Shown: piece after piece, positions 22,873 to 64,000 of the stretch | Position numbering within the stretch: the first letter of the stretch is position 1 | Layout: the number at the start of each line of letters is the position of its first letter | From: a virus | Taxonomy: Duplodnaviria; Heunggongvirae; Uroviricota; Caudoviricetes | IMG/VR virus record: IMGVR_UViG_3300042868_014220 | Strand: one strand, 5' to 3' | DNA: 64,000 nucleotides | The notes under the pieces: model-generated | What the model was told of the DNA's origin: nothing | What the model saw: only the letters and a program-made list of their open reading frames with translations | Database searches by the model: none | Translations under genes and position numbers: made by a program

Positions 22873-23553
22873 ATGAATTACGGAAAAGAATTTCAATCGT
22901 TTTACACAGGACATTTAGGTAAACCATCATCACATTTAGATTACTTTGCAAAAAGTATTGAATCATCAATGACTCCATATATTTTGGAAGAAAGGGAAAT
23001 GAGGGTTACTCAAATGGATATCTTCTCAAGATTAATGAGAGACAGACTATTATGGGTCGCAGGACCTGTCAATGATAATATGTCCACTATCGTTCAAGCT
23101 CAGTTAATGTTCTTGGATTCAACGGATAAAGCGGACATTACAATGCACATTGACTCTCCTGGTGGAAGTGTTAAATCGGGTTTGTCTATGGTTGATGTTA
23201 TGGAGTATATCTCTTGTGATATCAGGACTGTTAACACGGGTATGGCGGCTTCAATGGGTTCAGTACTATTAGGTGCAGGTACCAAAGGAAAACGTTCATC
23301 TCTGAAGTTCTCACGAACAATGTTACACCAATCATCAGGCGGTGCTGAGGGTAACATCCAAGACGCTCGTATTAGCTTCATAGAGTGGGAGAAAATTAAC
23401 AAAACTCTGTTTGATTTGTTGGGTTCTTATTGTAACAAAACTGCAGAACAAGTTATGGAAGATGCGTCTCGTGATTTGTGGTTGGATTCTAGCGAGGCAT
23501 TGACCTACGGAATTATTGACGAAATTGTTAAAACAAAAAAGAAGGGTAATTAA
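22873..23553 (+). CDS. clpP: ClpP-family serine protease
   Basis: GMAASMGS (Ser), MLHQSSGG (His), overall ClpP alignment. Confidence 0.8.
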   Translation: MNYGKEFQSFYTGHLGKPSSHLDYFAKSIESSMTPYILEEREMRVTQMDIFSRLMRDRLLWVAGPVNDNMSTIVQAQLMFLDSTDKADITMHIDSPGGSVKSGLSMVDVMEYISCDIRTVNTGMAASMGSVLLGAGTKGKRSSLKFSRTMLHQSSGGAEGNIQDARISFIEWEKINKTLFDLLGSYCNKTAEQVMEDASRDLWLDSSEALTYGIIDEIVKTKKKGN

Positions 23554-33724: not shown

Positions 33725-33726
33725 CA

Positions 33727-34485: not shown

Positions 34486-34487
34486 TA

Positions 34488-34688: not shown

Positions 34689-34707
34689 TGAATAAAAAAG
34701 AAGACAG

Positions 34708-35536: not shown

Positions 35537-35542
35537 AAAGTT

Positions 35543-36059: not shown

Positions 36060-36150
36060 AAAAATATGAATAAATTAGATAAACCCCAACCACCTGCACC
36101 ACCAAAAGATAGAATCTATATAGAATCTTCTTGGTTAGAAACCATAACAT

Positions 36151-37559: not shown

Positions 37560-37562
37560 ATT

Positions 37563-47892: not shown

Positions 47893-49080
47893 TTAAGTAG
47901 AAGGGAAAAAATCTTTTTCAAAAGATTGTGCAATACCTCCTTTTATTTTGTACAACCAATCACCATAATTTATTTTTTGTTCAGTTCCTTTATTTGGAAA
48001 TACCACAATACCACCAATATTATAACTTAATAATTTTGAATCTTTCTCAGAACTTTTTACTTGGATTGGTACTTTAACCCCATTTAACTCAAGTATTAAG
48101 TCAGTTTGAAAAGTTATATCAACTAAGTTACCATAAGACGAAAAACTATGTATCTTTGATTCTGGTACGTTTTTATCAATTATTAACCATTTAATAAATT
48201 CATCCTCACTTTTGTCACCAGATTTTGTTGTTTTTTTAATCCTATTAATAATATTATTCAACGGGTCAATACCTAACATTTCAGTATCTTCGTCGTTTTG
48301 ATGGTGAAACGCTTCAATTATATCAAACTCAGCAAAACTCAAAGTTTCAGCAGAATTTGACACTTTATTTTTTTCGTGTTTATCTAAATGTTCAAATTCA
48401 GTGTAAAAATCTGAAATTGATTGTTGTTCAAAATATTTTAACAAAGCGTCACGAGCAGAACCTCTACCCAAATCACCATTAAGATATCTTTTGGTAATCA
48501 TTCTCGCCCAGTTAATTGTGTTGGTATTAATTTTATTTAAAATTGACCAAGTTTTTTTCTCACCATCAACTTCAACAAATCCAACAAATTTTTCAGTTGA
48601 TAATTCTCGTATTAAACTAAGTGCCTCTTCGTGGGTAGTCGATTGATTTATTCTATCTTCAAATTTGTGTGAGCTTGGACTATTTTTTGTGTTTTTTATA
48701 AAAAATTTCAAATCATTTGAATTCCTAATGACCCATTCTTGAGTTGGTTTATCAACAATTATTTTATAATCTTTTGAAGGTTTTAAAAATTTTTTTTTGG
48801 ATGTTTTCATTAAATTTAGATAAGCCTCAATACCCAACTCTTTAATTTTACTTTGATAGTGTTTTTGAAGACTGTCATAAATTAAAGAATCTTTATAAAA
48901 ATTTGTTTTGAAAATTTCAATAGCCTTTTCCAATTGTGATTGACTCAAAGTTCCTTTTCGTTCTAATTGAGCCTTTATACTATTCATAAAAACGTTTGAA
49001 CCTTTGTAATCACGAATCAATTGAAGCGTATCAAATTTCTCAACTTCTTCTTTAATAATTTTTCTGATTAAATCCTTCAT
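47893..49080 (-). CDS. Hypothetical protein (N-terminal IIKEEV motif); first gene of minus-strand operon
   Basis: ORF. Confidence 0.55.
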   Translation of the reverse strand: MKDLIRKIIKEEVEKFDTLQLIRDYKGSNVFMNSIKAQLERKGTLSQSQLEKAIEIFKTNFYKDSLIYDSLQKHYQSKIKELGIEAYLNLMKTSKKKFLKPSKDYKIIVDKPTQEWVIRNSNDLKFFIKNTKNSPSSHKFEDRINQSTTHEEALSLIRELSTEKFVGFVEVDGEKKTWSILNKINTNTINWARMITKRYLNGDLGRGSARDALLKYFEQQSISDFYTEFEHLDKHEKNKVSNSAETLSFAEFDIIEAFHHQNDEDTEMLGIDPLNNIINRIKKTTKSGDKSEDEFIKWLIIDKNVPESKIHSFSSYGNLVDITFQTDLILELNGVKVPIQVKSSEKDSKLLSYNIGGIVVFPNKGTEQKINYGDWLYKIKGGIAQSFEKDFFPST

Positions 49081-49112
49081 ATCATGATAAATACCACAGT
49101 AAAATAAAAATG

Positions 49113-49400
49113 TTAAGAATCCTCAGTTGGTTCCTCTAATTTCTTTTCTTTCTGAATTTGATTTACAATATAACCAGCAATTGCAAATTCAATACTAGCC
49201 CAAAGTGCAATGTCAGAAGCGGTAAGTTTATCGATATTAATTAACAAGAAATAAATCATACCCCATTGCCCAACAATAACTGCAATACCTGATTCAACTC
49301 TTTTTTTAGAAAAATAAGATTTCTCATTACTATATAGTTTAACGATTTCTTTAATAACCCATTTTAAATTTGTCCATCCTAAAAAATATTTTTTCTTCAT
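49113..49400 (-). CDS. Small membrane protein
   Basis: Hydrophobic segments. Confidence 0.45.
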   Translation of the reverse strand: MKKKYFLGWTNLKWVIKEIVKLYSNEKSYFSKKRVESGIAVIVGQWGMIYFLLINIDKLTASDIALWASIEFAIAGYIVNQIQKEKKLEEPTEDS

Positions 49401-49464
49401 AGTAATTTCTCTTTACTTATAAATATCTTGTAATAAAAAAAGGAAACATTTGTTTCCTTTATAA

Positions 49465-49707
49465 CTAACTTACTTTGACTATCTGAATTGTAATCCCCGC
49501 ACTCCCTGAAGATATATTATATCTGTTACCGACATTAGTGTTGATGAATCCGTAATCTTTAAATCTGAATATAACACATTCCTCGTTTTCAAACCAAGCA
49601 TGTATAGCATTTGTTGCATAATCAATATGTGGATGAGTAATTTTTTCCGCTCTCCAAGAACTCTTAAATTTTTCTTCTAATTCTTCAACACTTATATGTA
49701 TTAACAT
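49465..49707 (-). CDS. Small hypothetical protein
   Basis: ORF. Confidence 0.45.
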   Translation of the reverse strand: MLIHISVEELEEKFKSSWRAEKITHPHIDYATNAIHAWFENEECVIFRFKDYGFINTNVGNRYNISSGSAGITIQIVKVS

Positions 49708-49843
49708 TCTATTTGATATTTATAATTAAATCAGCCTCCCCACAATGATGGGGACTTTTAGGACCGTTATCGTTATGGTAACATTAAAAGGGGAAGTTCG
49801 CTACTATCCCCTTTTTTCATTTAAATAATAGTAAAAATTATGG

Positions 49844-50137
49844 TTATAACAAATAACCATCAATATATTTTTTGATAGTTCTTCTTAAAACTTCAGTCCC
49901 CAAATGTCGCCACTCATCCTCAATTTCACCATATATTTTTCCAACCAAATACTTTTTATTATGTTCGATGGTGTGTGACCTATCATCAACATACATTTGT
50001 TTTATTGGTTTTTTCATCCAGTCAAATTTGAATTCACTAACAGGAAAATTTCTCTTCAGGTGGTTCAATAATTCATCTGAAGTTTTTCCATCATATTTAG
50101 ATAGTATTTGTTTTTTTTCTTCTTCTGTGATATTCAT
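49844..50137 (-). CDS. Hypothetical protein (N-terminal ITEEEKKQIL motif)
   Basis: ORF. Confidence 0.5.
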   Translation of the reverse strand: MNITEEEKKQILSKYDGKTSDELLNHLKRNFPVSEFKFDWMKKPIKQMYVDDRSHTIEHNKKYLVGKIYGEIEDEWRHLGTEVLRRTIKKYIDGYLL

Positions 50138-50187
50138 AATAATAATAAATATAGTTGTATTTATTTAAAAAAATAGCAACAAATATA

Positions 50188-50340
50188 ATGGCAAAATTAG
50201 CAAAATCCAAAGGCTCAACAACAACTTCTATAAAAAGAGCTAAGAAAAAAATTTCAAGACCTGGCGTTCACGCTAAGACTAAAACTTCTAAAACTAAAAC
50301 CTCTAAGAATTACAAAAAACGTAATAGAGGACAGGGGTAA
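50188..50340 (+). CDS. Small lysine-rich basic protein
   Basis: MAKLAKSKGS...KTKTSKTKTSKNYKKRNRGQG. Confidence 0.4.
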   Translation: MAKLAKSKGSTTTSIKRAKKKISRPGVHAKTKTSKTKTSKNYKKRNRGQG

Positions 50341-50382
50341 TCTACATTTTTTTATATTTTTTCGTATACTATTGTTATTGTA

Positions 50383-50664
50383 ATGGATAATAAACGGAGA
50401 GTCTATCGCCTGTTGGAAGGATTTATTAACGAATCTAATAAAGAGTCTGTTGAAACTTGGTATGGTAAAGGTTCGGTTATTAAAATTCACAATATGACAT
50501 TCACTCAGAAAAAAAGCGTTGTCATTGAGATTGTTATTGTGTTGGGTGATGTAATATCGGAAGCCGTTATGGATGAGAGAATGGCAACTGTATTGGTTTC
50601 TGATGGGTTAGGATATTTCTTTCCTGAGTTATCTGTTCACCTAATTCATAGGTGGGATTCTTAA
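50383..50664 (+). CDS. Hypothetical protein
   Basis: ORF. Confidence 0.4.
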   Translation: MDNKRRVYRLLEGFINESNKESVETWYGKGSVIKIHNMTFTQKKSVVIEIVIVLGDVISEAVMDERMATVLVSDGLGYFFPELSVHLIHRWDS

Positions 50665-51278
50665 TTTCCTCTATTTGAAGATAGATACCCTGCAACTCTT
50701 TCTGAACGTATTTTTAAATATTCAATCTGCCCTTCTGTAAGTATTGTTGGGTCCAAGAAATCAACTCCAAGAGAACCCATTAGTTTTCCCGTTCCAAAGT
50801 CAAATAAACCAACCATATAAGTCGCCTTTGCACCTGTTGCTTCAGCTCCTGGTTTTAAACCATAAGTTGCAACGGTTTCATTATCATAATCTGAAATTCC
50901 TATGAATTTTGAATTCATAATCTCAGCAAAACATCTTGAATATAATGATATTGGAATATTGGTAAAAACAGTTGATACTGGTAATATTCCTGGTCCGTCT
51001 ACTTCATAAACTACCGAGAATTTTTGCATTGATTTATTTGAATGTAAAAAATGACCTCCATTATGGAATTGAGTAATCCAAACTCTGTCTCCACCTATTT
51101 TTTGTAAAACTTCTTCAATTTCTGTTGTTATTTTTTCAATTGAGAAAAGTTCAATAACCATTTCGTCTTTAGGTTTAGTTAATTTTTTCTTAACCCATAA
51201 TAGTACAACAGGTCCAAACAATGCGGTAATTAGCGCTACCAATACACTACCAAATATTTCCATCATATGCTGATTCAT
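50661..51278 (-). CDS. Hypothetical membrane-anchored protein
   Basis: N-terminal TM helix. Confidence 0.5.
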   Translation of the reverse strand: MNQHMMEIFGSVLVALITALFGPVVLLWVKKKLTKPKDEMVIELFSIEKITTEIEEVLQKIGGDRVWITQFHNGGHFLHSNKSMQKFSVVYEVDGPGILPVSTVFTNIPISLYSRCFAEIMNSKFIGISDYDNETVATYGLKPGAEATGAKATYMVGLFDFGTGKLMGSLGVDFLDPTILTEGQIEYLKIRSERVAGYLSSNRGN

Positions 51279-51356
51279 TTACCTTTTAATTTAACATATA
51301 AATACTAAAAAATACTAAAAGATGAAATATTAAAATAAATTAATTTAGTGTTAGTT

Positions 51357-51668
51357 CTATGAAAAATCCACACAACACTCAAAACCTAATAAAGATTCTA
51401 ATAAGTTTGTAACATTAAGTGTTTGTAAAGTTTGAGAATAACCCTCATTAAGACTTGTTCCCCTTTTTAATGAAATAAATAATGTATACGAAAATGGTTC
51501 CCATTTATTGTCGTCAGTTAACTGACTTGTTTCCAACGCTTTAAATTCAGTTATTGTTAACCCACTAAACGAAATATCCAATGCAGATTGAACTACTTTT
51601 TTTAATCTATTTTCGTCCATGTCATATCTGAATTTAATACCACAGAATAGACATGTTTTTTCTTCCAC
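51357..51668 (-). CDS. Small hypothetical protein
   Basis: ORF. Confidence 0.4.
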   Translation of the reverse strand: MEEKTCLFCGIKFRYDMDENRLKKVVQSALDISFSGLTITEFKALETSQLTDDNKWEPFSYTLFISLKRGTSLNEGYSQTLQTLNVTNLLESLLGFECCVDFS

Positions 51669-52012
51669 TCCGATGGAGCAATAATGGATAATGAATATCC
51701 ACCATCCAAATCCTCATATAAGTGATATATTTCACCTATAAGAGGCTCAAATTTATATTTGGACTCGTATATCCTCTGAGTAATTAAAAACGATTTCTGA
51801 AGGGTTTCTGCTTGTTCTACAATCTCTTTGTATCTTCTATCAAAAACTTTATTTACTTTATCAAGACCATTTTTCTTGAATGTGGTTAAATCGGTTGGTT
51901 TTATAGATGGTGAACCGACATTACTACCGTATGGAAGTAATCCAGGATTGTCCGCAACGTTATCAGGTTTCTTGTTAGTCATAAAAAAAAATGTCCCACT
52001 ATTGTGAGACAT
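51602..52012 (-). CDS. Hypothetical protein
   Basis: ORF. Confidence 0.45.
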   Translation of the reverse strand: MSHNSGTFFFMTNKKPDNVADNPGLLPYGSNVGSPSIKPTDLTTFKKNGLDKVNKVFDRRYKEIVEQAETLQKSFLITQRIYESKYKFEPLIGEIYHLYEDLDGGYSLSIIAPSEWKKKHVYSVVLNSDMTWTKID

Positions 52013-52044
52013 TAATTATAATCTTTAAAAATTAAAAAACAACA

Positions 52045-52545
52045 TTAGTGTCCTTTAATCATGTTAATTCCGTGTTTCAAGAACTCTTTTGCTCTTGGTG
52101 AAATGTGTTTCATCGAATACACTTTTTCAATATCTTTAACAAGTTCCTCCCCGTGTTCATTCTCTTTATAAAGTTCAATAATTTTATCCATAGCAGAACC
52201 ACACTCTTTTTTGGTTTCATCAAAGTAGTTGTAAGGCTTAAATGATTTCAAGTGATTCATAATCTCACTTGCCAAGTGTTCACCACCATCAGAAACTTTA
52301 TTATGCATTCTAAGGGTTTTCAATAACTCTAATTTATCTACCAAACCATTAATACCTCTAGGTCTAATTTGTACACCTTCAATATAATCTTCGGCATCAT
52401 CATCACCAACAATTTCCTCTAAAGATTTTACGTTTCCACCATGGCAGAATTTACGGTCATCTTCTTTTGTTTCGGATTCTTCTATAAGATAAAGTTTTTT
52501 AATTGATTCTTTATCGCTTTCAGTAAGTTGAAATCTTTTTCCCAT
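52045..52545 (-). CDS. Hypothetical protein (N-terminal QLTESDKESI motif)
   Basis: ORF. Confidence 0.5.
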   Translation of the reverse strand: MGKRFQLTESDKESIKKLYLIEESETKEDDRKFCHGGNVKSLEEIVGDDDAEDYIEGVQIRPRGINGLVDKLELLKTLRMHNKVSDGGEHLASEIMNHLKSFKPYNYFDETKKECGSAMDKIIELYKENEHGEELVKDIEKVYSMKHISPRAKEFLKHGINMIKGH

Positions 52546-52587
52546 ACATATAAATATACAGAGTCTAAGTTAGTTAGGGGTTTCTTG

Positions 52588-52785
52588 TTAAAATAATTTT
52601 TGTGTATCGTTATACAATTTTTTCATCGTTGATTCGATAACATTGATTCTTCGTTGGTCTTCGTCACTAACTTCAAAGTTTTTTGCTTTAATCAATCTCA
52701 CTTCTTCTTGAAGTCTTTGATATCTCAAAAGCATATCGTCATACAATTTTGCTTTTTCTTGTTGGTTTAAATGTTGAGCTCCCAT
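52588..52785 (-). CDS. Small coiled-coil protein
   Basis: ORF. Confidence 0.4.
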   Translation of the reverse strand: MGAQHLNQQEKAKLYDDMLLRYQRLQEEVRLIKAKNFEVSDEDQRRINVIESTMKKLYNDTQKLF

Positions 52786-52833
52786 AATTTCTTTTTCTAA
52801 AAATAATATAACTTTTAGGATTATAAATAGTCT

Positions 52834-53028
52834 TTAGTTTTTATTAGTATCTTTCCACTCTAACCAAAATCCGATTCCAACTATTAAATTCATGCCAACA
52901 GATATTAATATTTCATAAATGTCTTTATAGATATTCATGGTTAAATGAATATGACCAACAATCCAAAAAGGTATTGATAAGTTAGATGCAATCCATTTTA
53001 TAGTATATTTTAAGAATTCCATGACCAT
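52834..53028 (-). CDS. Small membrane protein
   Basis: ORF. Confidence 0.35.
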   Translation of the reverse strand: MVMEFLKYTIKWIASNLSIPFWIVGHIHLTMNIYKDIYEILISVGMNLIVGIGFWLEWKDTNKN

Positions 53029-53279
53029 TGATAACCTAAGACATAATCTCTATTATGTTTTAATGTTGTAAATTTTTCTATTCTATTTGTTAAATCATAA
53101 CCAAGTGTGTCATCATAATCACTTTTTTTGGCATCATATTTAATAATAAATCTTGGACAATCACCATCATACGCTGACAATATATCATAAGATATCTCAA
53201 CTATTGGGTATTTGTGGACACCGTCAATATTCAAATAAGTCTCTATTAATTTTTTAACTTGTTCGGGTGTTTTTCTCAT
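53010..53279 (-). CDS. Small hypothetical protein
   Basis: ORF. Confidence 0.4.
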   Translation of the reverse strand: MRKTPEQVKKLIETYLNIDGVHKYPIVEISYDILSAYDGDCPRFIIKYDAKKSDYDDTLGYDLTNRIEKFTTLKHNRDYVLGYQWSWNS

Positions 53280-53651
53280 TTAAGCATCGAGAGTTTTAAC
53301 TGGTAATTCAAAATTTTCCGTAAACCATTTTTTAAATGGTTCATACCACATTTCATTAAAATATCCATTCAATATCTTTTCATATTCATATTCAACAGAT
53401 ACCATTGGACAAGAAACTTTTATTTGATTATCGGGATAAAAATATTCACAATCATACCATCTAAAACACGTATCTTCATCACCATAATCTCCAATATAAA
53501 ATTCAACTCTGGTTTCATCGTCATAGTTTTCACCAGTTTCATCATCATATTCTGTAGGATTTGTGGAGTTTATGTTATCAACGGGAAATAAAACATTAAT
53601 ATACTCAATAATGGCGGTTTCCAATTTAGATTCAGTGATGATATACTTCAT
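53280..53651 (-). CDS. Hypothetical protein (N-terminal IITESKL motif)
   Basis: ORF. Confidence 0.5.
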   Translation of the reverse strand: MKYIITESKLETAIIEYINVLFPVDNINSTNPTEYDDETGENYDDETRVEFYIGDYGDEDTCFRWYDCEYFYPDNQIKVSCPMVSVEYEYEKILNGYFNEMWYEPFKKWFTENFELPVKTLDA

Positions 53652-53662
53652 ACCTTTAAATA

Positions 53663-54097
53663 TTAGGAATTTTGGTTAATTTCCCTGTCAATATCCCTCT
53701 TTTTCATCGTTTCCCTTTTATCATACAGGTTTTTACCCTTTGCAAGAGCTATTTCGACCTTAATTAGACCCTTTTCGTTGAGAAATACTCTATATGGGAC
53801 AATGGTTAACCCTTTAATCAATTCCTTCTGTAAACGAGACAATTCTCGTCTTTTTAGTAAAATTTTACGGTCTTGATTGGATTTATGGGTATAATCTGAC
53901 AATATTTCACTAATATTAGCGTTTTTTAGGTATAATTCACCATCAATAAAGGTACAAAACGCTTCAGATATTGACATTTTACCATTACGAATTGATTTCA
54001 CTTCGGAACCCATCAATACAATACCACCAACTTCAGTACGGATGAATTGATATTCAAACTTGGCTTTCTTATTTATTATATTAACTTGACTATTCAT
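53663..54097 (-). CDS. smpB: SsrA-binding protein SmpB
   Basis: KKAKFEY...GIVLMGSEVKSIRNGKMSISEAF...TIVPYRVFLNEKGLIKVEIALAKGKNLYDKRETMKKRD matches SmpB conserved blocks. Confidence 0.75.
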   Translation of the reverse strand: MNSQVNIINKKAKFEYQFIRTEVGGIVLMGSEVKSIRNGKMSISEAFCTFIDGELYLKNANISEILSDYTHKSNQDRKILLKRRELSRLQKELIKGLTIVPYRVFLNEKGLIKVEIALAKGKNLYDKRETMKKRDIDREINQNS

Positions 54098-54149
54098 AGT
54101 GCAAATATAATAAAAAAACTCTCAAGGTGTTGAGAGTTTTAAATATTTT

Positions 54150-54710
54150 TTAAGCAATATTTGTATCAATTGGTTTTGGTTTTGGAGATGCACCTGCTAA
54201 ATATCCGTCGGCTACTTTAGCCAACAATGGACCAGTTCCCCATTTTTTAAGTCCTTGCATTCTTGATAGTTTGTAAAGACCGACATCATTCTTTAATCCA
54301 TTAACAATGTCCGTATAATATCCTAATTTCAAAGTTTCGCATGTTGCTTTAATCCCATCTTCCATTGACCGATAGTTTTTAACTCCTTTACTATTAAAGT
54401 TTGTTGTTCCTGACATTTTTTTAGTTGTATTAAATGGGTTGAATTTTGCGGTTGCTCCTTCAGCTTGTCTCCAAGCATACATAAATGACATATTACCTTT
54501 AGTTGGTTGAGCACCAAGACATTGTAATACCTTCTTATAAAACTCATCATCAGATGTTGTTTTAGATTGGACTTTATCATCCAATTTTTTTGAGTCCAAA
54601 TCTATTTTTTTTGAATTCAAGTCTGATGAGTTACCACCCATTGTCATTTTTAAAATGTTACTAAGCAATTTTGCTAAATCTTGTTCATTAAGTCGTATAA
54701 CTCTTTTCAT
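54150..54710 (-). CDS. Hypothetical protein (N-terminal IRLNEQDL motif)
   Basis: ORF. Confidence 0.5.
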   Translation of the reverse strand: MKRVIRLNEQDLAKLLSNILKMTMGGNSSDLNSKKIDLDSKKLDDKVQSKTTSDDEFYKKVLQCLGAQPTKGNMSFMYAWRQAEGATAKFNPFNTTKKMSGTTNFNSKGVKNYRSMEDGIKATCETLKLGYYTDIVNGLKNDVGLYKLSRMQGLKKWGTGPLLAKVADGYLAGASPKPKPIDTNIA

Positions 54711-54719
54711 ATACTAATC

Positions 54720-55061
54720 TTATTTTCCTAATTTACCTAACATACAACTAGGTAATGCAGTATTTTTTGAATCGGTAACACCAACCATGTACCACATGGT
54801 ACCTGATTGTTTTAATGTTCCTTTTGAATTTACGGAACACATTTTCATCCCTGCAAAGTTTTGCGGAGATTGTGTCGGTTTATTAATTGGAGCTGACACT
54901 TGTTCATCAATTGAATATTGATGAACTAATGGTTTTAAATCACCAAGTTTTGAATTTGTTAATTTATTGAAATTTTCGGTAATAACTTTTATTCCACCTG
55001 TATGTTGTTCACGAATACTATTTTTTTCCTCTTCAGTTAAATTATTTAATATGTGTTTCAT
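54720..55061 (-). CDS. Hypothetical protein (N-terminal LTEEEKNSI motif)
   Basis: ORF. Confidence 0.5.
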   Translation of the reverse strand: MKHILNNLTEEEKNSIREQHTGGIKVITENFNKLTNSKLGDLKPLVHQYSIDEQVSAPINKPTQSPQNFAGMKMCSVNSKGTLKQSGTMWYMVGVTDSKNTALPSCMLGKLGK

Positions 55062-55091
55062 AAAATTTGTTTATTATAAATATAAGATAAA

Positions 55092-56465
55092 TTAAATTTC
55101 GCCAAGTTCTGACTGTAATGTTTCACTATCAGGTATATTCTTGGATTTTAATATTTCCGCCATTTTTTTTGCAGTATATCTATCCATCTTACCTACTGAT
55201 GACGTTAATTTATTTTCTTCTTGAAATTTAGTTAATTGTGATTGCGTTTCAGGACCGAACTTACCGTCCACACCGAATTTAGGTAAAGTATATCCTAACT
55301 TAATTAATGCATTTTGGAATTTAGTAACGTCATTATTTTCCGTATATACTCCTGATTCTCCTTCATATCCTGCAACCTCTTCTGCCATAAAATCTAACGA
55401 TTCTTTTGATGTTTCATCAGGATTTAAATCTTCCATGTTATCCAAAGCATTATAATCAATTGACCCATCATCCAACACAACATCAGATAATCTTTTTATA
55501 AATAAAGGTACCAAAACACTATATCCTCTTCTCATCCAAGGTGCTCCAATTGCGTTTTTAACAAATGTCTCAACAGGAACCGCAGTTTGCCAAGTTCTAT
55601 TACCACCTTTAAATAAAATTTTTACACCAGTATCTGTAACTTCTTCAATTGTTCCAGTCATTGCCTTTCCTGAAGGTCCTATATACCTATATGGTTTACC
55701 CTTAACAAATCCCATTCTTCTTAAGAAGAATGAACCTTTTTGTATTTTAGGTATTTTACTTAAAAATGAAGTTAATGCTTTTTTACCTCCCGCTCTCATA
55801 CCAGTCATTATTGCAGCCTTTGGAGTTATTTTTGAAAGTAATGCAGTGACTCTTGTAGAAAATTTTGAAACGTATCCTGATATTTTAGTCCCAAATTTGC
55901 CTAAAATCTTTTTGGCTAATGGAGATTTTAACGCTTTCCCAATTAAATTTGGAATTGCACCTAATATAAATTTTAAACTTTTACCGATAATACCCAAACC
56001 TTTAACCACAACTTTTGAAGTTAAACCTACACCTGTTTTTACCGCTCTTTTAAGTGGTATAGAAATTGCTTGTAATGGTCCAGGTAATATAACAAAAGCA
56101 AAGGTAATTGCTGCCATTAAATATAAAGAATCTTTTTCCTCATCTCCTTTAAATTGTGCCTCAATGATATAACTAACAGCGTTTAAAACATCAACAACCG
56201 CACCACTTCCAGGTATTACAAAATCTAATCCTGCAGATAAAACGTCAGCTCCAGCGTGTAAAATATCACTAAGTGTCCATCCTTCATTTAATAATGTTTC
56301 TTCACCTGTTTCAGTATAATATGCTTTACCTTCATAAACAACATATTTACCATCAGACGTGAATTTACATTCCATTAATTTTTGTAATGGTTTTTTATCT
56401 TCGACCAATAGTCCATACATTTTTAATATATCGTTTCTATCTGATTCAGTAATTATAAATCTCAT
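55092..56465 (-). CDS. Membrane protein with N-terminal IITESD motif and C-terminal peptidoglycan-binding domain
   Basis: C-terminus DVTKFQNALIKLGY...VDGKFGPETQSQLTKFQ; central hydrophobic region. Confidence 0.55.
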   Translation of the reverse strand: MRFIITESDRNDILKMYGLLVEDKKPLQKLMECKFTSDGKYVVYEGKAYYTETGEETLLNEGWTLSDILHAGADVLSAGLDFVIPGSGAVVDVLNAVSYIIEAQFKGDEEKDSLYLMAAITFAFVILPGPLQAISIPLKRAVKTGVGLTSKVVVKGLGIIGKSLKFILGAIPNLIGKALKSPLAKKILGKFGTKISGYVSKFSTRVTALLSKITPKAAIMTGMRAGGKKALTSFLSKIPKIQKGSFFLRRMGFVKGKPYRYIGPSGKAMTGTIEEVTDTGVKILFKGGNRTWQTAVPVETFVKNAIGAPWMRRGYSVLVPLFIKRLSDVVLDDGSIDYNALDNMEDLNPDETSKESLDFMAEEVAGYEGESGVYTENNDVTKFQNALIKLGYTLPKFGVDGKFGPETQSQLTKFQEENKLTSSVGKMDRYTAKKMAEILKSKNIPDSETLQSELGEI

Positions 56466-56486
56466 GTACTTATAAATATCATAAAC

Positions 56487-56522
56487 AATAAAAAACCCAT
56501 CCTTGTGAGACGAGGTTAATCA
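56487..56522. terminator. Conserved intergenic terminator module copy 1
   Basis: aaaaaacccatccttgtgagacgaggttaatcattt. Confidence 0.45.
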
Positions 56523-56923
56523 TTTACGTCTTTAACGTTAGCATCAATATTTCCGTCAACAGATGTTATTGAGAAATTAAGTCCAACATATACCAAAAGT
56601 TTAGACATTGTTCCTCTCATATTACTAAAATAATTAAAACCATAAGCATTATCCGCCATTTCAGTGGTAATCTCATCTTCACCATTCCATCCATTATCAA
56701 ACAATGGTTTAGAATCCATTATAACATTAACATCAAAATCTAAAAATCTTTCACCGATACGATAAGGACCGATTTTACGTGTGGTATAAACTTCTTTAAC
56801 ATAATTTGTTTTGAATTCCAAAACAAACGGATAGGTTGAGGGCATCATAGTATCCCAAAGCTTAGATAATACTTTTGTGTGGTCAGCAACCACATCTTCT
56901 TCCTTAAAATCTTTCCGTGACAT
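56516..56923 (-). CDS. Hypothetical protein
   Basis: ORF. Confidence 0.5.
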   Translation of the reverse strand: MSRKDFKEEDVVADHTKVLSKLWDTMMPSTYPFVLEFKTNYVKEVYTTRKIGPYRIGERFLDFDVNVIMDSKPLFDNGWNGEDEITTEMADNAYGFNYFSNMRGTMSKLLVYVGLNFSITSVDGNIDANVKDVND

Positions 56924-56949
56924 AATCTATAAATACAATAATTTTAATC

Positions 56950-57864
56950 TTACACAATTCGTGTGTTGTTATTTTGTTTTGTATCTTGGTAAGCCAACTG
57001 ATTTATTTTGTTTATCATAATATTAATATCTTGATAACCACTCAAAGCCCAACAACATAAAACCCAATAAATTTGACCATCATATTTTTCTTTTTTAATA
57101 TATGGTATTAACATTTCTTTAGTTATGTTTTCTCCTGGCTTTAAATTAAAAAGTTTTCTAATTGCCATAATATTAGACATTTTTTCAGTTTCTTTACAAG
57201 CATAATTTGGATTGTTTTCTTCTTGACTTTTAGCGGTTCTTAACCAAGTAAATAAAGTGAATTCATCTATTCCATATTTTTTTGATACTTTTCTAATATT
57301 AACCCAAAATTTACTTAAAGCTTCATAACTAACTTCAAAATCTTTTGGTGTCATTTTTTTTGTCCCATCTTTAACAAATACATCACCAATTTTAACAGAT
57401 GGATTTAATGGTTTAATTTTGTAAAGAGTATGTTGAATTTCGTGAACTAATGTCGTTAATGGTTGTTCATCATTTTTAGAACAATTAACGAAAAGTTTAG
57501 TTGGTTGCGTATCAATAACATATGCGAATGTATTTTTAGTTGAATCACTAGATGCAGTTACATTATCATAGTAAACCAAATTAATTGCATTTATTGCGTT
57601 AATATATTTTTTAAATAAATCATCTACAGTAATTCCATCAATTTTATTATCAACACCAACACCCCAATTTTTCTTAAATTTAGACTTAGTAATAGGACTT
57701 GATAACCATTGAATCCAATAATCTTTTGCTTGTTTAAGATAACTTATCCATTTTGATTTACAGAATGGACCAACTCTTGCAACATTATTTGAGCTCTTAC
57801 CTGAGATTGTAGTTTGTTCTGTTAAAATTTTTGAAAGTTGAGATTCTGTTATGATAAATTCCAT
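56950..57864 (-). CDS. Hypothetical protein with IITESQL N-terminus and HEIQH motif
   Basis: MEFIITESQLSKIL; LVHEIQHTLY. Confidence 0.5.
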   Translation of the reverse strand: MEFIITESQLSKILTEQTTISGKSSNNVARVGPFCKSKWISYLKQAKDYWIQWLSSPITKSKFKKNWGVGVDNKIDGITVDDLFKKYINAINAINLVYYDNVTASSDSTKNTFAYVIDTQPTKLFVNCSKNDEQPLTTLVHEIQHTLYKIKPLNPSVKIGDVFVKDGTKKMTPKDFEVSYEALSKFWVNIRKVSKKYGIDEFTLFTWLRTAKSQEENNPNYACKETEKMSNIMAIRKLFNLKPGENITKEMLIPYIKKEKYDGQIYWVLCCWALSGYQDINIMINKINQLAYQDTKQNNNTRIV

Positions 57865-57885
57865 ATCATTATAAATACAAAGATA

Positions 57886-57927
57886 AACAAAAAACCCCAT
57901 CCTTAAGACGGGGTTAGTGATTTAAGA
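57886..57927. terminator. Conserved intergenic terminator module copy 2
   Basis: aaaaaaccccatccttaagacggggttagtgattt. Confidence 0.5.
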
Positions 57928-58206
57928 TTTTATCATCGCGTCGATAAACAATATTGTATTTTCAACTTTACTCCAATTTTCTTCTCGGATTGCGGACTTT
58001 AACATTCGTCTAACATATTCAATTTTATTTACAACTTCACCTGATAAATCTCCTGACGAATCATCAAGATGAACGTATTCATCATCCTTTAAATCATCAT
58101 ATAAATTTTTAATATCTCTACCACCGTATACTCTGTCATTTTCATTGATTACTTTTTTAACAATTCTTGTTAAATCATCTTCCGTTAATTTTATAACTTT
58201 TTTCAT
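57922..58206 (-). CDS. Small protein with KLTEDDL N-terminus
   Basis: MKKVIKLTEDDLTRIVKKVINEND. Confidence 0.5.
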   Translation of the reverse strand: MKKVIKLTEDDLTRIVKKVINENDRVYGGRDIKNLYDDLKDDEYVHLDDSSGDLSGEVVNKIEYVRRMLKSAIREENWSKVENTILFIDAMIKS

Positions 58207-58212
58207 ATTTTT

Positions 58213-59052
58213 TTATTTTTTTAAAATTAAGAATTCATAATAATATTTACCTGATTCACCTTTCCATTCGTCTTCTCGTTTCAAGTTGGGGTAAAGGTTT
58301 TCTATGTTTTTTTCAATTCTATCATCTAATTCTTTTCTATTAATGTCGGACCATACTAGTGTCATACCTGCTATTTTGGTTTCACCTGTTGAGTATGATA
58401 CTTTAAACACATTATTGGTGTATGAGAAAACCACACTACTCTCATCTATTGATGTACCACCACTTGTTTTAGATTTTACCTTGTTTCTAAATTCGTCAAG
58501 GGTGGTTCCTTCTATAGTTTCAGGTACGTTTGGTTGTGATTGTGAATTTTTTGAAACTATAAAAAATGCCTGTATATATTCCTCATTTGTTCCTTTTACT
58601 TTATAAATGGATGGTCCAATTACCCTTATTTGACTTGGAGTTACTTTGAAAAGTGCCTGTAATCTATCAATTAAACCATTGGTATTATCTTTAAAACGGT
58701 TTTTATAATCAGCACCAATAGCACCTCTAGATGTAAATCCAATATCAGGATTGTTAGTGTCTGAAACTAAAGTAACAGTTCCGTCGGTAATAATTTTTTT
58801 ACCACTAACATATGATGAAACTTTGATATCGGTAATTCTATAACTTCCACTCTTTAATTTTTTACTTACTCTATCTTCCAAATCATCGGATAAATTCTTA
58901 GAACTTAATATACCGTGTACTAAATCCCAATTAGTTTCCCCTGGATATGGTTGTTCTCCTCTGATTGAAACAGTCTCGCTTGACTGTTCATTTAACCCGT
59001 ATAAACTACGAATTGATTTTTTTTCTTCTTCCGTTAGAATAAATTTTCCCAT
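58213..59052 (-). CDS. Hypothetical protein (N-terminal ILTEEEKKSI motif)
   Basis: ORF. Confidence 0.5.
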   Translation of the reverse strand: MGKFILTEEEKKSIRSLYGLNEQSSETVSIRGEQPYPGETNWDLVHGILSSKNLSDDLEDRVSKKLKSGSYRITDIKVSSYVSGKKIITDGTVTLVSDTNNPDIGFTSRGAIGADYKNRFKDNTNGLIDRLQALFKVTPSQIRVIGPSIYKVKGTNEEYIQAFFIVSKNSQSQPNVPETIEGTTLDEFRNKVKSKTSGGTSIDESSVVFSYTNNVFKVSYSTGETKIAGMTLVWSDINRKELDDRIEKNIENLYPNLKREDEWKGESGKYYYEFLILKK

Positions 59053-59074
59053 ATCATTATAAATACCTCATAAA

Positions 59075-59113
59075 ACAAAAAACCCCATCCTTTTGAGACG
59101 GGGTTAGTGATTA
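59075..59113. terminator. Conserved intergenic terminator module copy 3
   Basis: aaaaaccccatccttttgagacggggttagtgatt. Confidence 0.5.
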
Positions 59114-59539
59114 AATTACTTCAATGGAGTTAATCTTATCTCCTTGTTGGATTTGGTCAATCACATCAAGTCCTTCAACAACTTTACCGAAACAGGTATG
59201 GTTTCCGTCCAAGTGTTGTGTTCCTTGTCTGTTATGACAGATGAAGAACTGAGAACCACCAGTGTTTCTTCCTGCGTGAGCCATAGATAGAATACCTTTG
59301 TCGTGGAATTGTTTTGGTGCGGTTACTTCACATTCGATGGTATAACCTGGTCCACCATTACCAAGTCCATTTGGGCATCCACCCTGAACTACGAAATTTG
59401 GAATAACTCTGTGGAAATTTAATCCATCATAGAATTTTTTTTCAATTAAACTTTTGAAATTGTTTGTTGCGATTGGCGTCTCGTCATACAACTCGGCAAC
59501 CATATCACCTTTGCTTGTAGAAATTTTTACTTTACTCAT
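59111..59539 (-). CDS. Cyclophilin-type peptidyl-prolyl cis-trans isomerase
   Basis: HRVIPNFVVQGGCPNGLGNGGPGY...SMAHAGRNTGGSQFFI. Confidence 0.8.
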   Translation of the reverse strand: MSKVKISTSKGDMVAELYDETPIATNNFKSLIEKKFYDGLNFHRVIPNFVVQGGCPNGLGNGGPGYTIECEVTAPKQFHDKGILSMAHAGRNTGGSQFFICHNRQGTQHLDGNHTCFGKVVEGLDVIDQIQQGDKINSIEVI

Positions 59540-59566
59540 AAATATATTTTCAACAAGTATAAGAAA

Positions 59567-59944
59567 TTAATTTTTAAAATCCAACACAAATCTTATATCA
59601 AAACTAGCACCAAATAAATTAGTTTTATACCCTAACATTTTATTTACGGTATGTAAATCATTAACTAAATTATTTTTTTCAGTATAAAACCCATTTAAAA
59701 CACAATCGTCCATATCCGCAATATGTAAAATTGCCAAACCTCCACCAGTAGAAAGAAATCTTTTTTGACAACGATTAACAAACATTATATCTGCCCACGA
59801 TGCTTTAAGATAAAAATTAACTCTAATACTGATTCTATCAATATCATCTTTAGTAACTTTTAAAGCTTCAATTCCTGAGATGAAATCATACTTTGGAACG
59901 ATTACCAAATTAATTACCTTCTCGTAAGTTTTATTTAAATCCAT
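59567..59944 (-). CDS. Hypothetical protein
   Basis: ORF. Confidence 0.45.
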   Translation of the reverse strand: MDLNKTYEKVINLVIVPKYDFISGIEALKVTKDDIDRISIRVNFYLKASWADIMFVNRCQKRFLSTGGGLAILHIADMDDCVLNGFYTEKNNLVNDLHTVNKMLGYKTNLFGASFDIRFVLDFKN

Positions 59945-59946
59945 AA

Positions 59947-60285
59947 TTAAAAAGGTCCACCGAAAGGTCCACCAAAATTTGCAATTAACTCACCATCAAC
60001 TCCATAAACTTGAAACTGAACACTTCTAAGTTTTATTCCAAAATATTTTGAAAGAGATTGTATATGATTGTCAACTAAATAGTGTGGGTCAAAATTGTAT
60101 TTATACATATTAAATTTATTTATTTCGGGGTCATTAAGATAAATGTTGACATACATATCGTAACCTTGGAAAAAAAGATTTTTTTCAAGTGAGACAATAT
60201 CAATATGGTCCACCATTGGATAAACCGATTTTAATATATCCGAATTAATTATTTTTGAAAACGCGGAAATTAATTTATCATCCAT
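59947..60285 (-). CDS. Hypothetical protein
   Basis: ORF. Confidence 0.45.
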   Translation of the reverse strand: MDDKLISAFSKIINSDILKSVYPMVDHIDIVSLEKNLFFQGYDMYVNIYLNDPEINKFNMYKYNFDPHYLVDNHIQSLSKYFGIKLRSVQFQVYGVDGELIANFGGPFGGPF

Positions 60286-60286
60286 A

Positions 60287-60553
60287 TTAATATCTATTTT
60301 TTAAAAATACATATACTACTTCAGGTATTTTTGTACATACATGCATTTCTCCTTTGTCATTTTTACAATCAATATATGGTAATTCTTTGATTATTTTTTT
60401 TAGTTCTCTAGGCCCGTTTTTCAACCTATTAACAATATAATCTCTGTTATATAATTTTTGGGAGTCGTATATCTCTTCATTGATTATTCTTTCAACCAAT
60501 GAAATCATTTGTGATTCTGTTAATCTTAATACTTTTGATTTACGTTTTTCCAT
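60287..60553 (-). CDS. Small protein with LTESQM N-terminus
   Basis: MEKRKSKVLRLTESQMISLVERIINEE. Confidence 0.5.
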   Translation of the reverse strand: MEKRKSKVLRLTESQMISLVERIINEEIYDSQKLYNRDYIVNRLKNGPRELKKIIKELPYIDCKNDKGEMHVCTKIPEVVYVFLKNRY

Positions 60554-62386: not shown

Positions 62387-64000
62387 CTAGTCTTTTATAA
62401 ATTTGGAATAGAATCTTAATCCACTTTTCTTAACCAATTGGATGATATAAAATCCTTTTTGTAATTCTTCGGTATTAATTTTTATTAATTCCCCGTTAAA
62501 TTGACTCAAATCTATTTCTTGGATAGTTTTTCCTTGAATATCGGTAATTAAGATTGTTTCATAAGTTTGTAATTGTCCTTGAATTAGTAAATTCAAATTT
62601 TTTTGATTTGGATTAGGGTACAAAGCCTTTATACCAGTTTGGGTATTGCTGTGCTCTAATTGTACAATATTACTAAAGGTAATTAATCCACTATTTTCTG
62701 TAATTCTGAGTTGGTAATAGGTTGAATTATAAGCCAGATGTTGTGTGTTTATAAATTCATAGTGTGTCAATGAATTGGTGTTATTTAATGCCGTGATATC
62801 ACCTATCGGATTAAAATTGAAACCATCATAAGAAATCATAATCTCATATTTATCGATGTCACTTTCATCGGCAACCTGCCACTCAATATAATGATGATTC
62901 ATTACTTGATAGGCTTCAAAAGAAATTAATTTGACGGGTAAAGGAATACAAAACGGAGTTAAAATAAAGGTGTCTCTAATGGTTTGGCAAATGTTATTTT
63001 CTATTTGCCACACAAGACTGTAAGTTCTTAGTGAATCCCCTGTGAAGGTGGCATTAGGATTGTGAATATCACTGATAGTGCCTCCCGAACCGCTTATAAT
63101 AATCCATGTGCCCTTAGAATTTCCGTTTGTTGATTGTGCATTTAATTGACAAGACCCACAGTGAGTATCAGAATCTGATGCAGATGAAATGTGTCGGTCA
63201 ATAATGGACGAAACAATGAATAATCCATTGGTTGTACCCGCACCTCCTCTCGTAGCTCCATTCGCTATAAATTCTGTTAATGCTGCAGAAGTAGTAGTAC
63301 CATTTACACCACCATTTGCTATTCTTGTTGGGCTCCCGTTTGAGATAGAAATAGTTCCACCGCCACCTCCACCTCCTGGACCTTCTGCTTCGTTACTAGT
63401 TATTAATTGATTACCTCCATTACCGCCATTTGTAAATAAGTTTAAAGTGTTTGCTATTGTGCCATCAACGCTTAATAAGACTGTACCACCACCGCCACCA
63501 CCACCAGGAGCATCATTGTGTCCCGCCGTTGTATTGGGTGAGTTTCCTCCACTTGAGGTAATAACGCCACTTCCTGATAAATTACCATAGCAAAGAATCA
63601 AAACTATTCCACCCCCGTGGCCACCTCTTGTTGCTGCCGAATTATTACCATCACCTGCACCTCCTCCGCCTCCAAAAAATGTTCTAGTATTGCTAAAAAC
63701 CAAAGGCCTTCCACCATAGCCACCCGAATTTCTTCTCCAATCTCCACCCCAAAGACTATTACCAGGTGCGGTTATTATTGCATCTCTATTAGCCCCAGAA
63801 TAAGTATATCCCCCTCTACCTCCTCCAGATGAAGTATTTGTTGAAAATGTACCTCCTTCCAAATTCCATGCGGTTGTCCAATTAATTGGTCCGTTGTCCG
63901 GATTTCCTAGTCCGTTCCAAGCAGATACAACCCCACCATTTGCACCACCCCCACCACCAGCATTGTGAGAATTACCCCCTCCCCCTCCATTTGCAGGAGC
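62387..64000 (-). CDS. Partial CDS (N-terminus outside window): glycine-rich repeat protein with Bacteroidota T9SS C-terminal sorting domain
   Basis: Reading frame open to window edge; GGGGG/NGGNGG repeats; C-terminus ...LYPNPNQKNLNLLIQ...ITDIQGKTIQEIDL...LQKGFYIIQLVKKSGLRFYSKFIKD typical of the Por-secretion CTD. Confidence 0.6.
   Translation of the reverse strand, partial: APANGGGGGNSHNAGGGGGANGGVVSAWNGLGNPDNGPINWTTAWNLEGGTFSTNTSSGGGRGGYTYSGANRDAIITAPGNSLWGGDWRRNSGGYGGRPLVFSNTRTFFGGGGGAGDGNNSAATRGGHGGGIVLILCYGNLSGSGVITSSGGNSPNTTAGHNDAPGGGGGGGTVLLSVDGTIANTLNLFTNGGNGGNQLITSNEAEGPGGGGGGGTISISNGSPTRIANGGVNGTTTSAALTEFIANGATRGGAGTTNGLFIVSSIIDRHISSASDSDTHCGSCQLNAQSTNGNSKGTWIIISGSGGTISDIHNPNATFTGDSLRTYSLVWQIENNICQTIRDTFILTPFCIPLPVKLISFEAYQVMNHHYIEWQVADESDIDKYEIMISYDGFNFNPIGDITALNNTNSLTHYEFINTQHLAYNSTYYQLRITENSGLITFSNIVQLEHSNTQTGIKALYPNPNQKNLNLLIQGQLQTYETILITDIQGKTIQEIDLSQFNGELIKINTEELQKGFYIIQLVKKSGLRFYSKFIKD

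Follow-up and report, generated by a model that had tools for sequence, protein, structure and literature searches.

Recurrent N-terminal leaders in a huge-phage genome segment as candidate capsid-targeting propeptides

Why would a series of phage proteins with unrelated bodies begin with much the same few residues? The question is raised by a 64,000-nucleotide stretch of DNA from a Caudoviricetes virus (IMG/VR record IMGVR_UViG_3300042868_014220), hereafter the window, an approximately 30% G+C sequence densely packed with small open-reading frames (ORFs), 15 of which had been named in a preliminary description as carrying a shared and possibly cleavable N-terminal leader. Here, we describe this leader, its distribution among related phages and the genes around it, and the most economical reading that we infer is a T4-like capsid-targeting propeptide system with several leader classes and dozens of cargo genes per genome.

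A leader family on unrelated proteins

The claim of a recurrent N-terminal motif on at least 14 proteins was borne out, as all 15 of the ORFs listed carry a leader when judged by hidden Markov models (HMMs) and sequence patterns. An enrichment over background was also found, the loose pattern [ILVF][TSN]E[SEDQN] being 4.9-fold enriched in the first 15 residues relative to the rest of the window proteins (binomial p = 8e-7). HMMs of the two main leader types were run on all six-frame ORFs of the window and of one relative, and significant matches occurred solely at ORF starts, all of them training sequences except for one new N-terminal member (L002:642); in the ~76,000 residues of this set, neither HMM A nor HMM B gave an internal leader match.

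The window leaders fall into four sequence classes, and only about four genes fully fit the one consensus that had been drawn for all of them. These are the class-A genes 19106, 57922, 60287 and, in degenerate form, 54150 (genes are named by their lower coordinate; Table 1), with the consensus MKK(I/V)I(R/K)LTESDLxRIVKRVIxE. Class A' (53280, 56950 and 39709) reads MK(I/Y)IITES(Q/K), class B (49844, 52045, 54720, 55092, 58213 and 24323) reads M..(F/L)I(I/L)(T/S)EEEKxxIxxxY/H...(L/I)xE, and class D (47893 and, weakly, 11280) reads M..L(I/R)(R/K)xIIKEE; both class-D leaders lack the T-E that had been attributed to every named leader. Two more classes, C (NRFRQLLESxMGNVKPLIxE) and E (MNRSYSKIRHIQESNxxLExRxLNEQ), were found only in relatives (L002:4115-4459, 13792-14484 and 15591-15971; L042:1496-1945). 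Leader length ranges from 7 to 28 aa across the classes, and the single motif of about 10 aa first described gives way to a family of leaders.

An unbiased clustering of all N-termini, from which pairs with homologous bodies were left out, yielded one super-family of 393 proteins and the two further classes C and E. The class-D protein 47893 joined the leader super-cluster, and 11280, the weakest member, fell outside it. True signal peptides formed a separate cluster, and by Sec, Tat and lipoprotein criteria the leader is not a signal peptide, being charged and amphipathic (LTESDLTRIVKRVIKE) with no hydrophobic run.

The distribution of the leader was followed with a strict class-A search, in which a 20-codon degenerate pattern was compared with IMG/VR and with GTDB species genomes. 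The pattern matched 101 IMG/VR contig stretches, many of them 100-321 kb long, and had 0 matches in 185,579 bacterial and archaeal GTDB species genomes. About 1 Mb of related loci gave 251 class-A and 75 class-B HMM matches, with an ATG start in 321 of the 326, and a profile search of 1.84 billion cluster representatives returned 7,714 proteins (50%-identity clusters) at E<=1e-3, nearly all aligning from residue 1. A homologue of the 55092 protein (457 aa; 69% identity), complete with leader and with more leader genes around it, is encoded on a 321-kb IMG/VR contig, and the exact 57922 protein is present on at least 22 metagenome contigs.

As had been stated in the preliminary description, the bodies behind the leaders are unrelated: the 219 unique leader proteins of the related loci form 169 body clusters without mutual similarity, several of which mix A and B leaders. 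Searches of the motif proteins and their neighbours with Pfam and PHROGs returned almost nothing, and the leader itself matches no known domain. Pfam searches of 148 leader bodies gave PG_binding_1 three times, M23, SLT, OmpA and a sigma-70/ECF factor once each, and a few weak others. An ECF-type sigma factor (L033:2357-2932) has the short A' leader MKIIITESQ and, if packaged, would be an injected transcription factor.

Leaders are exchanged between related bodies. Homologues in the HExxH family of window protein 56950 (329 matches) start with one of three leaders, MKILIKESQYKVLLEQ↓ (A'), MKKIVKLTESDLTNIIKRVIIEQ↓ (A) or ..ISQEEKNRILEMHSSKKSVISEQ↓ (B), where the arrow marks the predicted cut, and the leader-swap point, at which the alignment converges, is exactly xE↓Q. 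A syntenic family of about 155 aa, RYMFFSNL, has a class-D leader in 20 variants and a class-A leader in two. The body of 19106, which matches phrog_7595 and phrog_9737, occurs behind the same leader in P0001, P0002 and P0010. The strict class-A leader is encoded by 77 distinct DNA versions; the Leu, Ser, Thr and Arg codons vary freely among them (4-5 synonymous codons) and the residues do not, indicating that selection acts on the peptide and not on the RNA or DNA.

The leader boundary and the prohead protease of relatives

Residues M1 to E22 of class A are almost fully conserved, conservation is lost at residue 23, and the E22 of V-I-x-E, which lies outside the search pattern, is present in 157 of 179 class-A sequences. 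Hydrophobic residues 12, 15, 16, 19 and 20 can be read as the a/d-type face of a basic helix of amphipathic character; the strand-like KIIRL and a helix cap, T-E-S-D, come before it. Classes B, C, D and E likewise end in (L/I)-x-E, with Q, N, S or E usually next, and [LI]xE is found within residues 4-30 in 99% of leader proteins, compared to 44% of other proteins. Class A has two candidate cut sites, LTE9 and VIxE22, and the short A' leaders have L-T-E only. In an AlphaFold2 (AF2) model of the 304-aa 56950 protein (predicted local distance difference test, pLDDT, 79), the leader is a detached low-confidence helix and residues 15-29 are of low confidence, followed by a well-folded body; the single-sequence AF2 model of the 279-aa 58213 protein reached a pLDDT of only 41.

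Local phmmer searches of leader-carrying loci with genuine T4 proteins found homologues of gp17, gp20, gp21 and gp23. The gene order in relatives is terminase large subunit (TerL), portal, a bS21-like small gene on the opposite strand, gp21-like protease, coiled-coil scaffold and major capsid protein (MCP). A gp21 homologue is encoded at L042:472-1173, for instance, and the scaffold protein (e.g. L075:5256-6632) has 458-511 aa. A published account of bS21-encoding huge phages of freshwater Bacteroidetes, recovered from freshwater metagenomes, describes the same head layout of TerL, portal, reverse-strand bS21, protease and MCP, in genomes of up to ~320-330 kb (to 331 kb) (Chen et al. 2022; PMC9723584). 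From this shared layout with its reverse-strand bS21-like ORF, the lineage is identified with the published bS21 phages, and the window is a member of that freshwater Bacteroidetes group. In the head-module loci of relatives, homologues of many window proteins are found at 40-80% identity; unlike the head layout of the bS21 phages, the 64-kb window itself holds no bS21 gene and no head module. The bS21-like ORF of relatives, named by resemblance, is 61-63 aa long and lies on the minus strand between portal and protease (L031:9588-9773, L075:1394-1582, L155:9233-9424).

The relatives' protease matches T4 gp21 at E=1e-19 with 31% identity, and its LNHP and SSRG.GS motifs are invariant. The maturation site of T4 gp23, L-T-E65↓A66, aligns with L-I-N-E↓A in the relatives' MCPs, where the E and A columns are invariant, and LIE9 of T4 gp21 aligns with I-L-V-E of its homologues. 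The N-terminal extensions of a syntenic post-MCP protein differ in length but never in their ending, (I/L)xE↓A(T/N)S, and many of them are class-D leaders. In T4, gp21 cuts after the Glu of L/I-X-E, and a 10-residue capsid-targeting sequence (CTS) loads internal proteins into the prohead core (PMC9026906). The alignments suggest that the (L/I)-x-E specificity of the protease has probably been retained in the lineage. The T4-style leader of the preliminary description is thus upheld in part: the gp21 homologue, the aligned sites, the end of conservation at V-I-x-E and the swaps at xE↓Q agree with it, its single motif does not stand, and its assignment of ClpP is probably wrong.

Identical leaders lie beside the protease gene on the relatives' contigs L031, L042, L046, L060 and L075, the last four of which have a class-E gene between the protease and scaffold genes. 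The notion that leader genes generally sit in head modules was rejected; the first cases (L031, L042 and L075) reflected the choice of loci, and such genes are rare in protease-selected head loci, which comprise the closest 80 of at least 594 proteases (916 kb).

We give a probability of roughly 0.58 to the reading that they are capsid-targeting propeptides of a huge T4-related phage in the freshwater Bacteroidetes bS21-phage lineage. This reading draws on the strict N-terminal position, the peptide-level selection, the modular exchange and the sharp (L/I)xE boundary; on the gp21-type protease in the lineage, a promoter shared with head genes and strain-level turnover (see below); on the virus-specific occurrence in 101 IMG/VR stretches and in no GTDB genome; on body domains suited to ejected proteins (PG_binding_1, M23, SLT, OmpA, sigma-70/ECF); on a hypervariable locus like that of the T-even ip genes; and on the AF2 model with its detached leader helix. 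The steps from scaffold docking through cleavage to capsid residence and injection are those that we infer only. The leader would comprise a short strand-like stretch and a basic amphipathic helix with a/d-spaced hydrophobics, e.g. MKKIIRL-TESDLTRIVKRVIKE, by which cargo may dock onto the coiled-coil scaffolding core during prohead assembly. A gp21-type prohead protease, for which the homologue seen in relatives is the plausible candidate, would cut after the Glu of (L/I)-x-E, in class A at V-I-x-E22, with L-T-E9 as a second possible class-A site and as the sole site in short A'. Mature cargo would remain in the head and be ejected with the DNA. Its genes would be small, fast-evolving and individually promoted late genes in hyperplastic islands, of which the 47.9-60.6 kb array may be one, shuffled via repeated terminator-promoter cassettes. 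Recognisable cargo would include peptidoglycan-binding and -degrading proteins, a zincin protease and an ECF-type sigma factor, and, if the internal proteins of T-even phages are a guide, many of the remaining proteins are probably host-takeover or anti-defence effectors.

Several observations weigh against capsid targeting. The gp21 homologue was seen in relatives only, there being no head module within the 64-kb window, and the 80 protease-selected loci contain just 5-9 leader genes, with no enrichment beside head genes. Agreement with the cleavage rule is, in itself, weak evidence, since the proteome is rich in E, I and L and [LI]xE is common in it, at 44% of non-leader N-termini. The 13 conserved residues past LTE9 would not be needed by a T4-like 10-aa CTS, and internal helix copies in some database proteins could mean that the helix serves for binding and is not removed. 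A large number of cargo species per genome is implied (at least 15 in 64 kb), the bodies, unlike T4 internal proteins (Ips), are not conspicuously basic, with a median pI of 5.9 for leader proteins vs 5.5 for others, and a megablast search with the region found no cultured relative among 50,697 phage records.

Part of this evidence would suit a leader that is never cleaved and acts as a docking or oligomerisation module, strand plus helix, tethering accessory proteins to one common partner, which could be the scaffold, another virion part, a membrane or a phage-made assembly, with no injection required. The database proteins P0127, P0131, P0135, P0145, P0155 and P0256 contain the class-A helix core two or three times, the internal copies without Met, and could be polyprotein cargo or multivalent binding modules; such copies in the multi-module P0131, P0145, P0155 and P0256 speak for a docking module, yet they fit polyprotein processing equally. 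The strong conservation of the 13 residues past the first (L/I)xE, the coiled-coil-like hydrophobic spacing read from the leader and the lack of enrichment in head modules also point towards docking, but the point at which conservation breaks off is precisely an (L/I)xE matching the aligned MCP maturation site, only this ending is common to five or more unrelated leader sequences, and leaders are swapped exactly at xE↓Q. The strand-to-helix junction L-T-E-S-D-L resembles that of ribbon-helix-helix (RHH) proteins. Nevertheless, neither RHH nor any other Pfam family matches the leader, no RHH family is among the Pfam matches of the 148 leader proteins, and conservation stops after the first helix. 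On balance, we consider an uncleaved module unlikely. Less probable again is an interchangeable peptide address code of at least five classes that routes hundreds of accessory proteins to a destination new for phages, for which the phage Clp unfoldase/protease as a timing device or a phage-built intracellular assembly could be candidates; internal copies could then mark multi-address proteins.

The preliminary description had cast the ClpP encoded in the window as the processing protease. The identification of ClpP is correct (Table 1) and the role is probably not: it is a canonical ClpP with neither portal nor MCP neighbours beside its gene (22873-23553), a ClpB/ClpC-like double-AAA+ ATPase of 671 aa (L192:7016-9031) adjoins the window just beyond its start, ~10 kb from ClpP, and the head modules of relatives use the gp21 homologue. 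ClpP is an unlikely processing enzyme. A UVR-domain protein (L192:9226-9618) also lies just beyond the window start, and the three would form a complete phage-borne Clp system. These genes would be expected if the leader were an N-terminal degron or adaptor tag for the phage's Clp machinery, serving the timed destruction or unfolding of phage proteins, and the Met-basic-basic-hydrophobic-hydrophobic start is loosely like the N-terminal recognition motifs of ClpX. A degron leaves unexplained the (L/I)xE boundary, its match to the MCP and post-MCP junctions, the class-D leaders on syntenic head-module proteins and the late head-type promoter, and there is no obvious rationale for marking dozens of late proteins for degradation, so that we regard this role as very unlikely.

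Capsid targeting, the favoured reading, can be compared with known systems. The T4 CTS, MKTYQEFIAE, shares only M-K and I-x-E with the leader, which is, therefore, a functional analogue and not a member of the same sequence family. The T-even phages, for which Ip diversity, the 10-aa CTS and the L/I-X-E rule have been described (PMC9026906, PMC3012670, PMC12373910), offer the closest set of likenesses: a short N-terminal leader is the sole common part of unrelated, fast-evolving small proteins (there IPI, IPII, IPIII and Alt, with gp21), it ends in the gp21 cleavage motif (L/I)-x-E, the lineage has a gp21-family protease, gp23-family MCP, gp20-family portal and gp17-family TerL, the loci are hypervariable with strain-level gene gain and loss, and some cargo has host-directed enzymatic domains. 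In contrast to the T-evens, there are at least 5-6 leader classes and not one, the largest role falls to a class of 22 residues that combines a conserved basic helix with two candidate sites, and at least 15 genes in 64 kb and ~7,700 metagenome clusters compare with ~10 known Ips. The bodies are also not notably basic, internal copies occur occasionally, the host is from the Bacteroidetes, genomes are ~200-330 kb, and packaging and cleavage are predictions. In the phiKZ gp175 and SPN3US gp245 systems, a diverged gp21-type protease similarly trims tens of head-internal proteins after Glu, and phiKZ-like phages have many paralogous or unrelated ejected proteins, some of them processed at internal sites to give several fragments (PMC9026906, PMC7411985); the motif there is (S/A/G)-x-E, with long propeptides and no shared address tag, whereas a conserved tag and a T4-type (L/I)-x-E are found here.

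The principle is thus known from the T-evens (CTS and gp21) and, in modified form, from phiKZ-like phages, and what appears to be new is the present family of leaders, along with the several classes, the scale and the host range that it shows. The family appears undescribed, since it has no Pfam model, no literature match for its peptide strings and no cultured relative in the 50,697 phage records. A full-text literature search with LTESDL, RLTESD, LTESQL and IRLTES gave no relevant paper, keyword searches led only to the T4, phiKZ and SPN3US literature, and the passages of PMC9723584 found by term search contain no description of an N-terminal leader family. A tblastn search of the same phage records with the 23-aa leader and the 457-aa protein found no relative, the sole matches being PG-binding domains.

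Should the leader be a capsid-loading tag, the proteins injected by an abundant group of uncultured huge phages could be read from metagenomes by a simple sequence rule, an arsenal of thousands of protein families with proteases, cell-wall enzymes and a sigma factor among them. Of the leader-tagged internal proteins of T-even phages, the few that are known are specific inhibitors of host restriction systems, and the leader-tagged set would be a large candidate pool of anti-defence or host-takeover effectors for Bacteroidetes. The CTS principle of T4 would then be ancient and capable of great expansion, new short cargo-loading tags with a matched protease would become available for phage capsid engineering, and the annotation desert of small huge-phage ORFs would turn into a testable functional class.

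Promoter motif, terminator cassettes and strain variation

The motif aTATTTATa occurs 11-26 nt upstream of the ATG in 28 of 117 window ORFs; the control orientation gave 8. Among the 15 window leader genes, 11 have the motif upstream, and the other four begin 2-11 nt after a co-oriented gene; 57922, with no promoter of its own, starts 6 nt past the 58213 stop. The true start of the 56950 gene is the ATG at 57864 (MEFIITESQ), 13 nt 3' of TATTTAT, and not 57900. In the 80 head loci, TATTTAT lies within 45 nt upstream of the genes for the protease (99%), bS21 (97%), the post-MCP protein (94%), p243, a conserved 243-aa head-module ORF (91%), and the scaffold (82%), and not before genes predicted to be co-transcribed with these. 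It is absent from the thymidylate synthase cluster at 28.6-38.9 kb, which is presumably of a different temporal class; this plus-strand cluster (28603-38920) includes the thymidylate synthase gene at 36420-37559.

The leader genes of the array had been assigned to one operon of about 30 genes. The array at 47.6-62.3 kb does contain 31 co-oriented genes, all on the minus strand, yet it also contains 20 terminator-like hairpins where 5.5 +/- 3.1 are expected. Six or more of these lie between genes on the minus strand, with a promoter-like motif after each, indicating that the array is not a single operon. A composite terminator-promoter cassette is present in three copies (Table 1).

The leader genes lie in a strain-variable island flanked by the cassettes. 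A three-gene segment of the array is missing from the 97%-identical contig L194, in which a 55-nt match to the cassettes at 59053-59105 and 57865-57915 brackets the indel. One of the genes lost is 58213, and no second copy of its 279-aa protein was found in IMG/VR. The same strain has MKKVIRLTEQDL in place of the 54150 leader MKRVIRLNEQDLAKLLSNILKM and a 180-aa version of the 54720 gene at the same position. The array is bordered by a gene for a glycine-rich protein with a T9SS C-terminal sorting domain (window 62387-63862; 780 aa in the full contig, L195:688-3030), and in place of this gene, L194:1-8300 has a different series of small genes, of which many have A or A' leaders.

This arrangement is similar to the promoter early stem-loop elements (PeSLs) of T4-type phages, in which a GC-rich hairpin terminator followed by a promoter is repeated 5' of small variable genes and entire genes between the cassettes distinguish strains that are otherwise nearly identical (PMC2839356, PMC4122927). 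Unlike the T4 PeSLs, the cassettes have a TATTTAT promoter, presumably of the late, head-gene type, and not a sigma-70-like early promoter, and there are three clear copies in the window. Since PeSLs mediate such shuffling in T4-type phages (PMC2839356, PMC4122927), and since repeated terminator-promoter cassettes stand directly 5' of leader genes and bracket a strain-level indel, the leader might be a functionless by-product of cassette shuffling, with promoter, start region and first codons acting as homology arms in PeSL-like recombination and gene conversion, or, in a variant of the same reading, a 5' coding region kept AT-rich by selection for translation initiation in hosts that lack Shine-Dalgarno sequences, with which the A-rich MKK start would agree. 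The codon analysis largely refutes this reading, the residues being fixed and the codons free. Upstream DNA beyond the TATTTAT core is unconserved among most leader genes, internal copies occur far from any promoter, and distinct leader classes share an ending at the peptide level, which together make a by-product extremely unlikely.

Features of the window and neighbouring genes

The leader genes, the cassettes and the main neighbouring genes are collected in Table 1. The SmpB, cyclophilin and ClpP identities given in the preliminary description were all confirmed by Pfam. ARAGORN found no tmRNA gene in the whole 64 kb, despite the SmpB homologue. The 55092 protein has a hydrophobic middle region and a C-terminal PG_binding_1 domain (Pfam, 7e-10). 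For the leaderless membrane protein of the array, tblastn matched 13 loci, in which the homologue lies at about -0.8 kb relative to the protease gene, and the L155 gene map agrees.

Table 1 Leader genes, cassettes and neighbouring genes of the window (arrow, predicted cut)
Feature	Position	Strand	Leader sequence and evidence
Class-A gene, 94 aa	57922..58206	-	MKKVIKLTEDDLTRIVKKVINE↓NDR; leader coded 58141-58206; HMM A, E=3e-8, at first ATG
Class-A gene, 88 aa	60287..60553	-	MEKRKSKVLRLTESQMISLVERIINE↓E; HMM A, E=1e-7; TATTTAT 26 nt upstream
Class-A gene, 197 aa	19106..19699	-	MGKIIKLTESDLINLVNRVLQE↓QKG; HMM A, E=2e-7; body has CWKGYTQKGMKT motif
Degenerate class-A gene, 186 aa	54150..54710	-	MKRVIRLNEQDLAKLLSNILKM; HMM A, E=6e-6
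Class-A' gene, 304 aa	56950..57864	-	MEFIITESQLSKILTE↓Q; body is a zincin-fold HExxH metallopeptidase
Class-A' gene, 123 aa	53280..53651	-	MKYIITESKLETAIIE↓Y; HMM A, E=3e-7
Class-A' gene, 205 aa	39709..40326	+	MDFLINESQLRIILQE↓Q; HMM A, E=6e-7; TATTTAT 13 nt upstream
Class-B gene, 457 aa	55092..56465	-	MRFIITESDRNDILKMYGLLVE↓D; HMM B, E=8e-7
Class-B gene, 279 aa	58213..59052	-	MGKFILTEEEKKSIRSLYGLNE↓Q; HMM B, E=7e-8
Class-B gene, 166 aa	52045..52545	-	MGKRFQLTESDKESIKKLYLIE↓E; HMM B, E=2e-6; TATTTAT 11 nt upstream
Class-B gene, 113 aa	54720..55061	-	MKHILNNLTEEEKNSIRE↓QH; HMM B, E=1e-7
Short class-B gene, 97 aa	49844..50137	-	MNITEEEKKQILSKY; HMM B, E=6e-7; TATTTAT 14 nt upstream
Class-B gene, 344 aa	24323..25357	-	MRFKITTEEAKSILEMHSKMKNNRPIIVE↓Q; HMM B, E=5e-8
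Class-D gene, 395 aa	47893..49080	-	MKDLIRKIIKEE↓V; class-D regex fit; TATTTAT 13 nt upstream
Probable class-D gene, 140 aa	11280..11702	+	MRNLRQIIKEE↓L; class-D regex fit; TATTTAT 12 nt upstream
Terminator-promoter cassette	59053..59105	-	AACCCCGTCTCAAAAGGATGGGGTTTTTTG...GTATTTATAATGAT-ATG; upstream of 58213; terminator scan, cassette alignment, repeat family D1
Cassette copy 2	57865..57915	-	Upstream of 57864 start; terminator scan, cassette alignment, repeat family D1
Cassette copy 3, more diverged	56466..56514	-	Upstream of 55092; terminator scan, cassette alignment, repeat family D1
Strain-variable segment	56939..59057	-	Three leader genes (58213, 57922, 57864); missing in 97%-identical contig L194 (blastn)
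SmpB homologue	53663..54097	-	Leaderless passenger in array; Pfam SmpB, 4e-44
Cyclophilin-type prolyl isomerase	59111..59539	-	Leaderless passenger in array; Pfam Pro_isomerase, 2e-41
Canonical ClpP	22873..23553	+	Pfam CLP_protease, 187 bits; probably unrelated to leader
Leaderless membrane protein, 95 aa	49113..49400	-	62%-identity homologue in relatives' head modules, between portal and bS21 genes

Paralogues with a phrog_17056 domain are present in three to four copies in the window (1-746, 1967-3514, 29564-30511 and 42554-43576), and at L031:11077-12222 this domain is found behind a class-A leader in the gene directly 3' of the prohead protease. A probable endolysin (43849-44649) has a PG_binding_1-like N-terminus, no leader and a TATTTAT motif; a Glyco_hydro_19 match was obtained among the window ORFs, and it may belong to this gene. 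A summary of Pfam matches over the wider window, without assignment to single ORFs, lists metallophosphoesterases, an AAA_33 kinase, Band_7/SPFH, a 4HBT thioesterase, a T4-type RNA ligase, HAD_SAK_2 and cREC_REC domains of RNA-repair type, ferritin, GNAT and HNH. The minus strand at 7560-16170 carries 23 tRNA genes for most amino acids, interspersed with small ORFs, and two tandem small paralogues at 16748-17002 and 17005-17235 both start with MKEETIEEAA.

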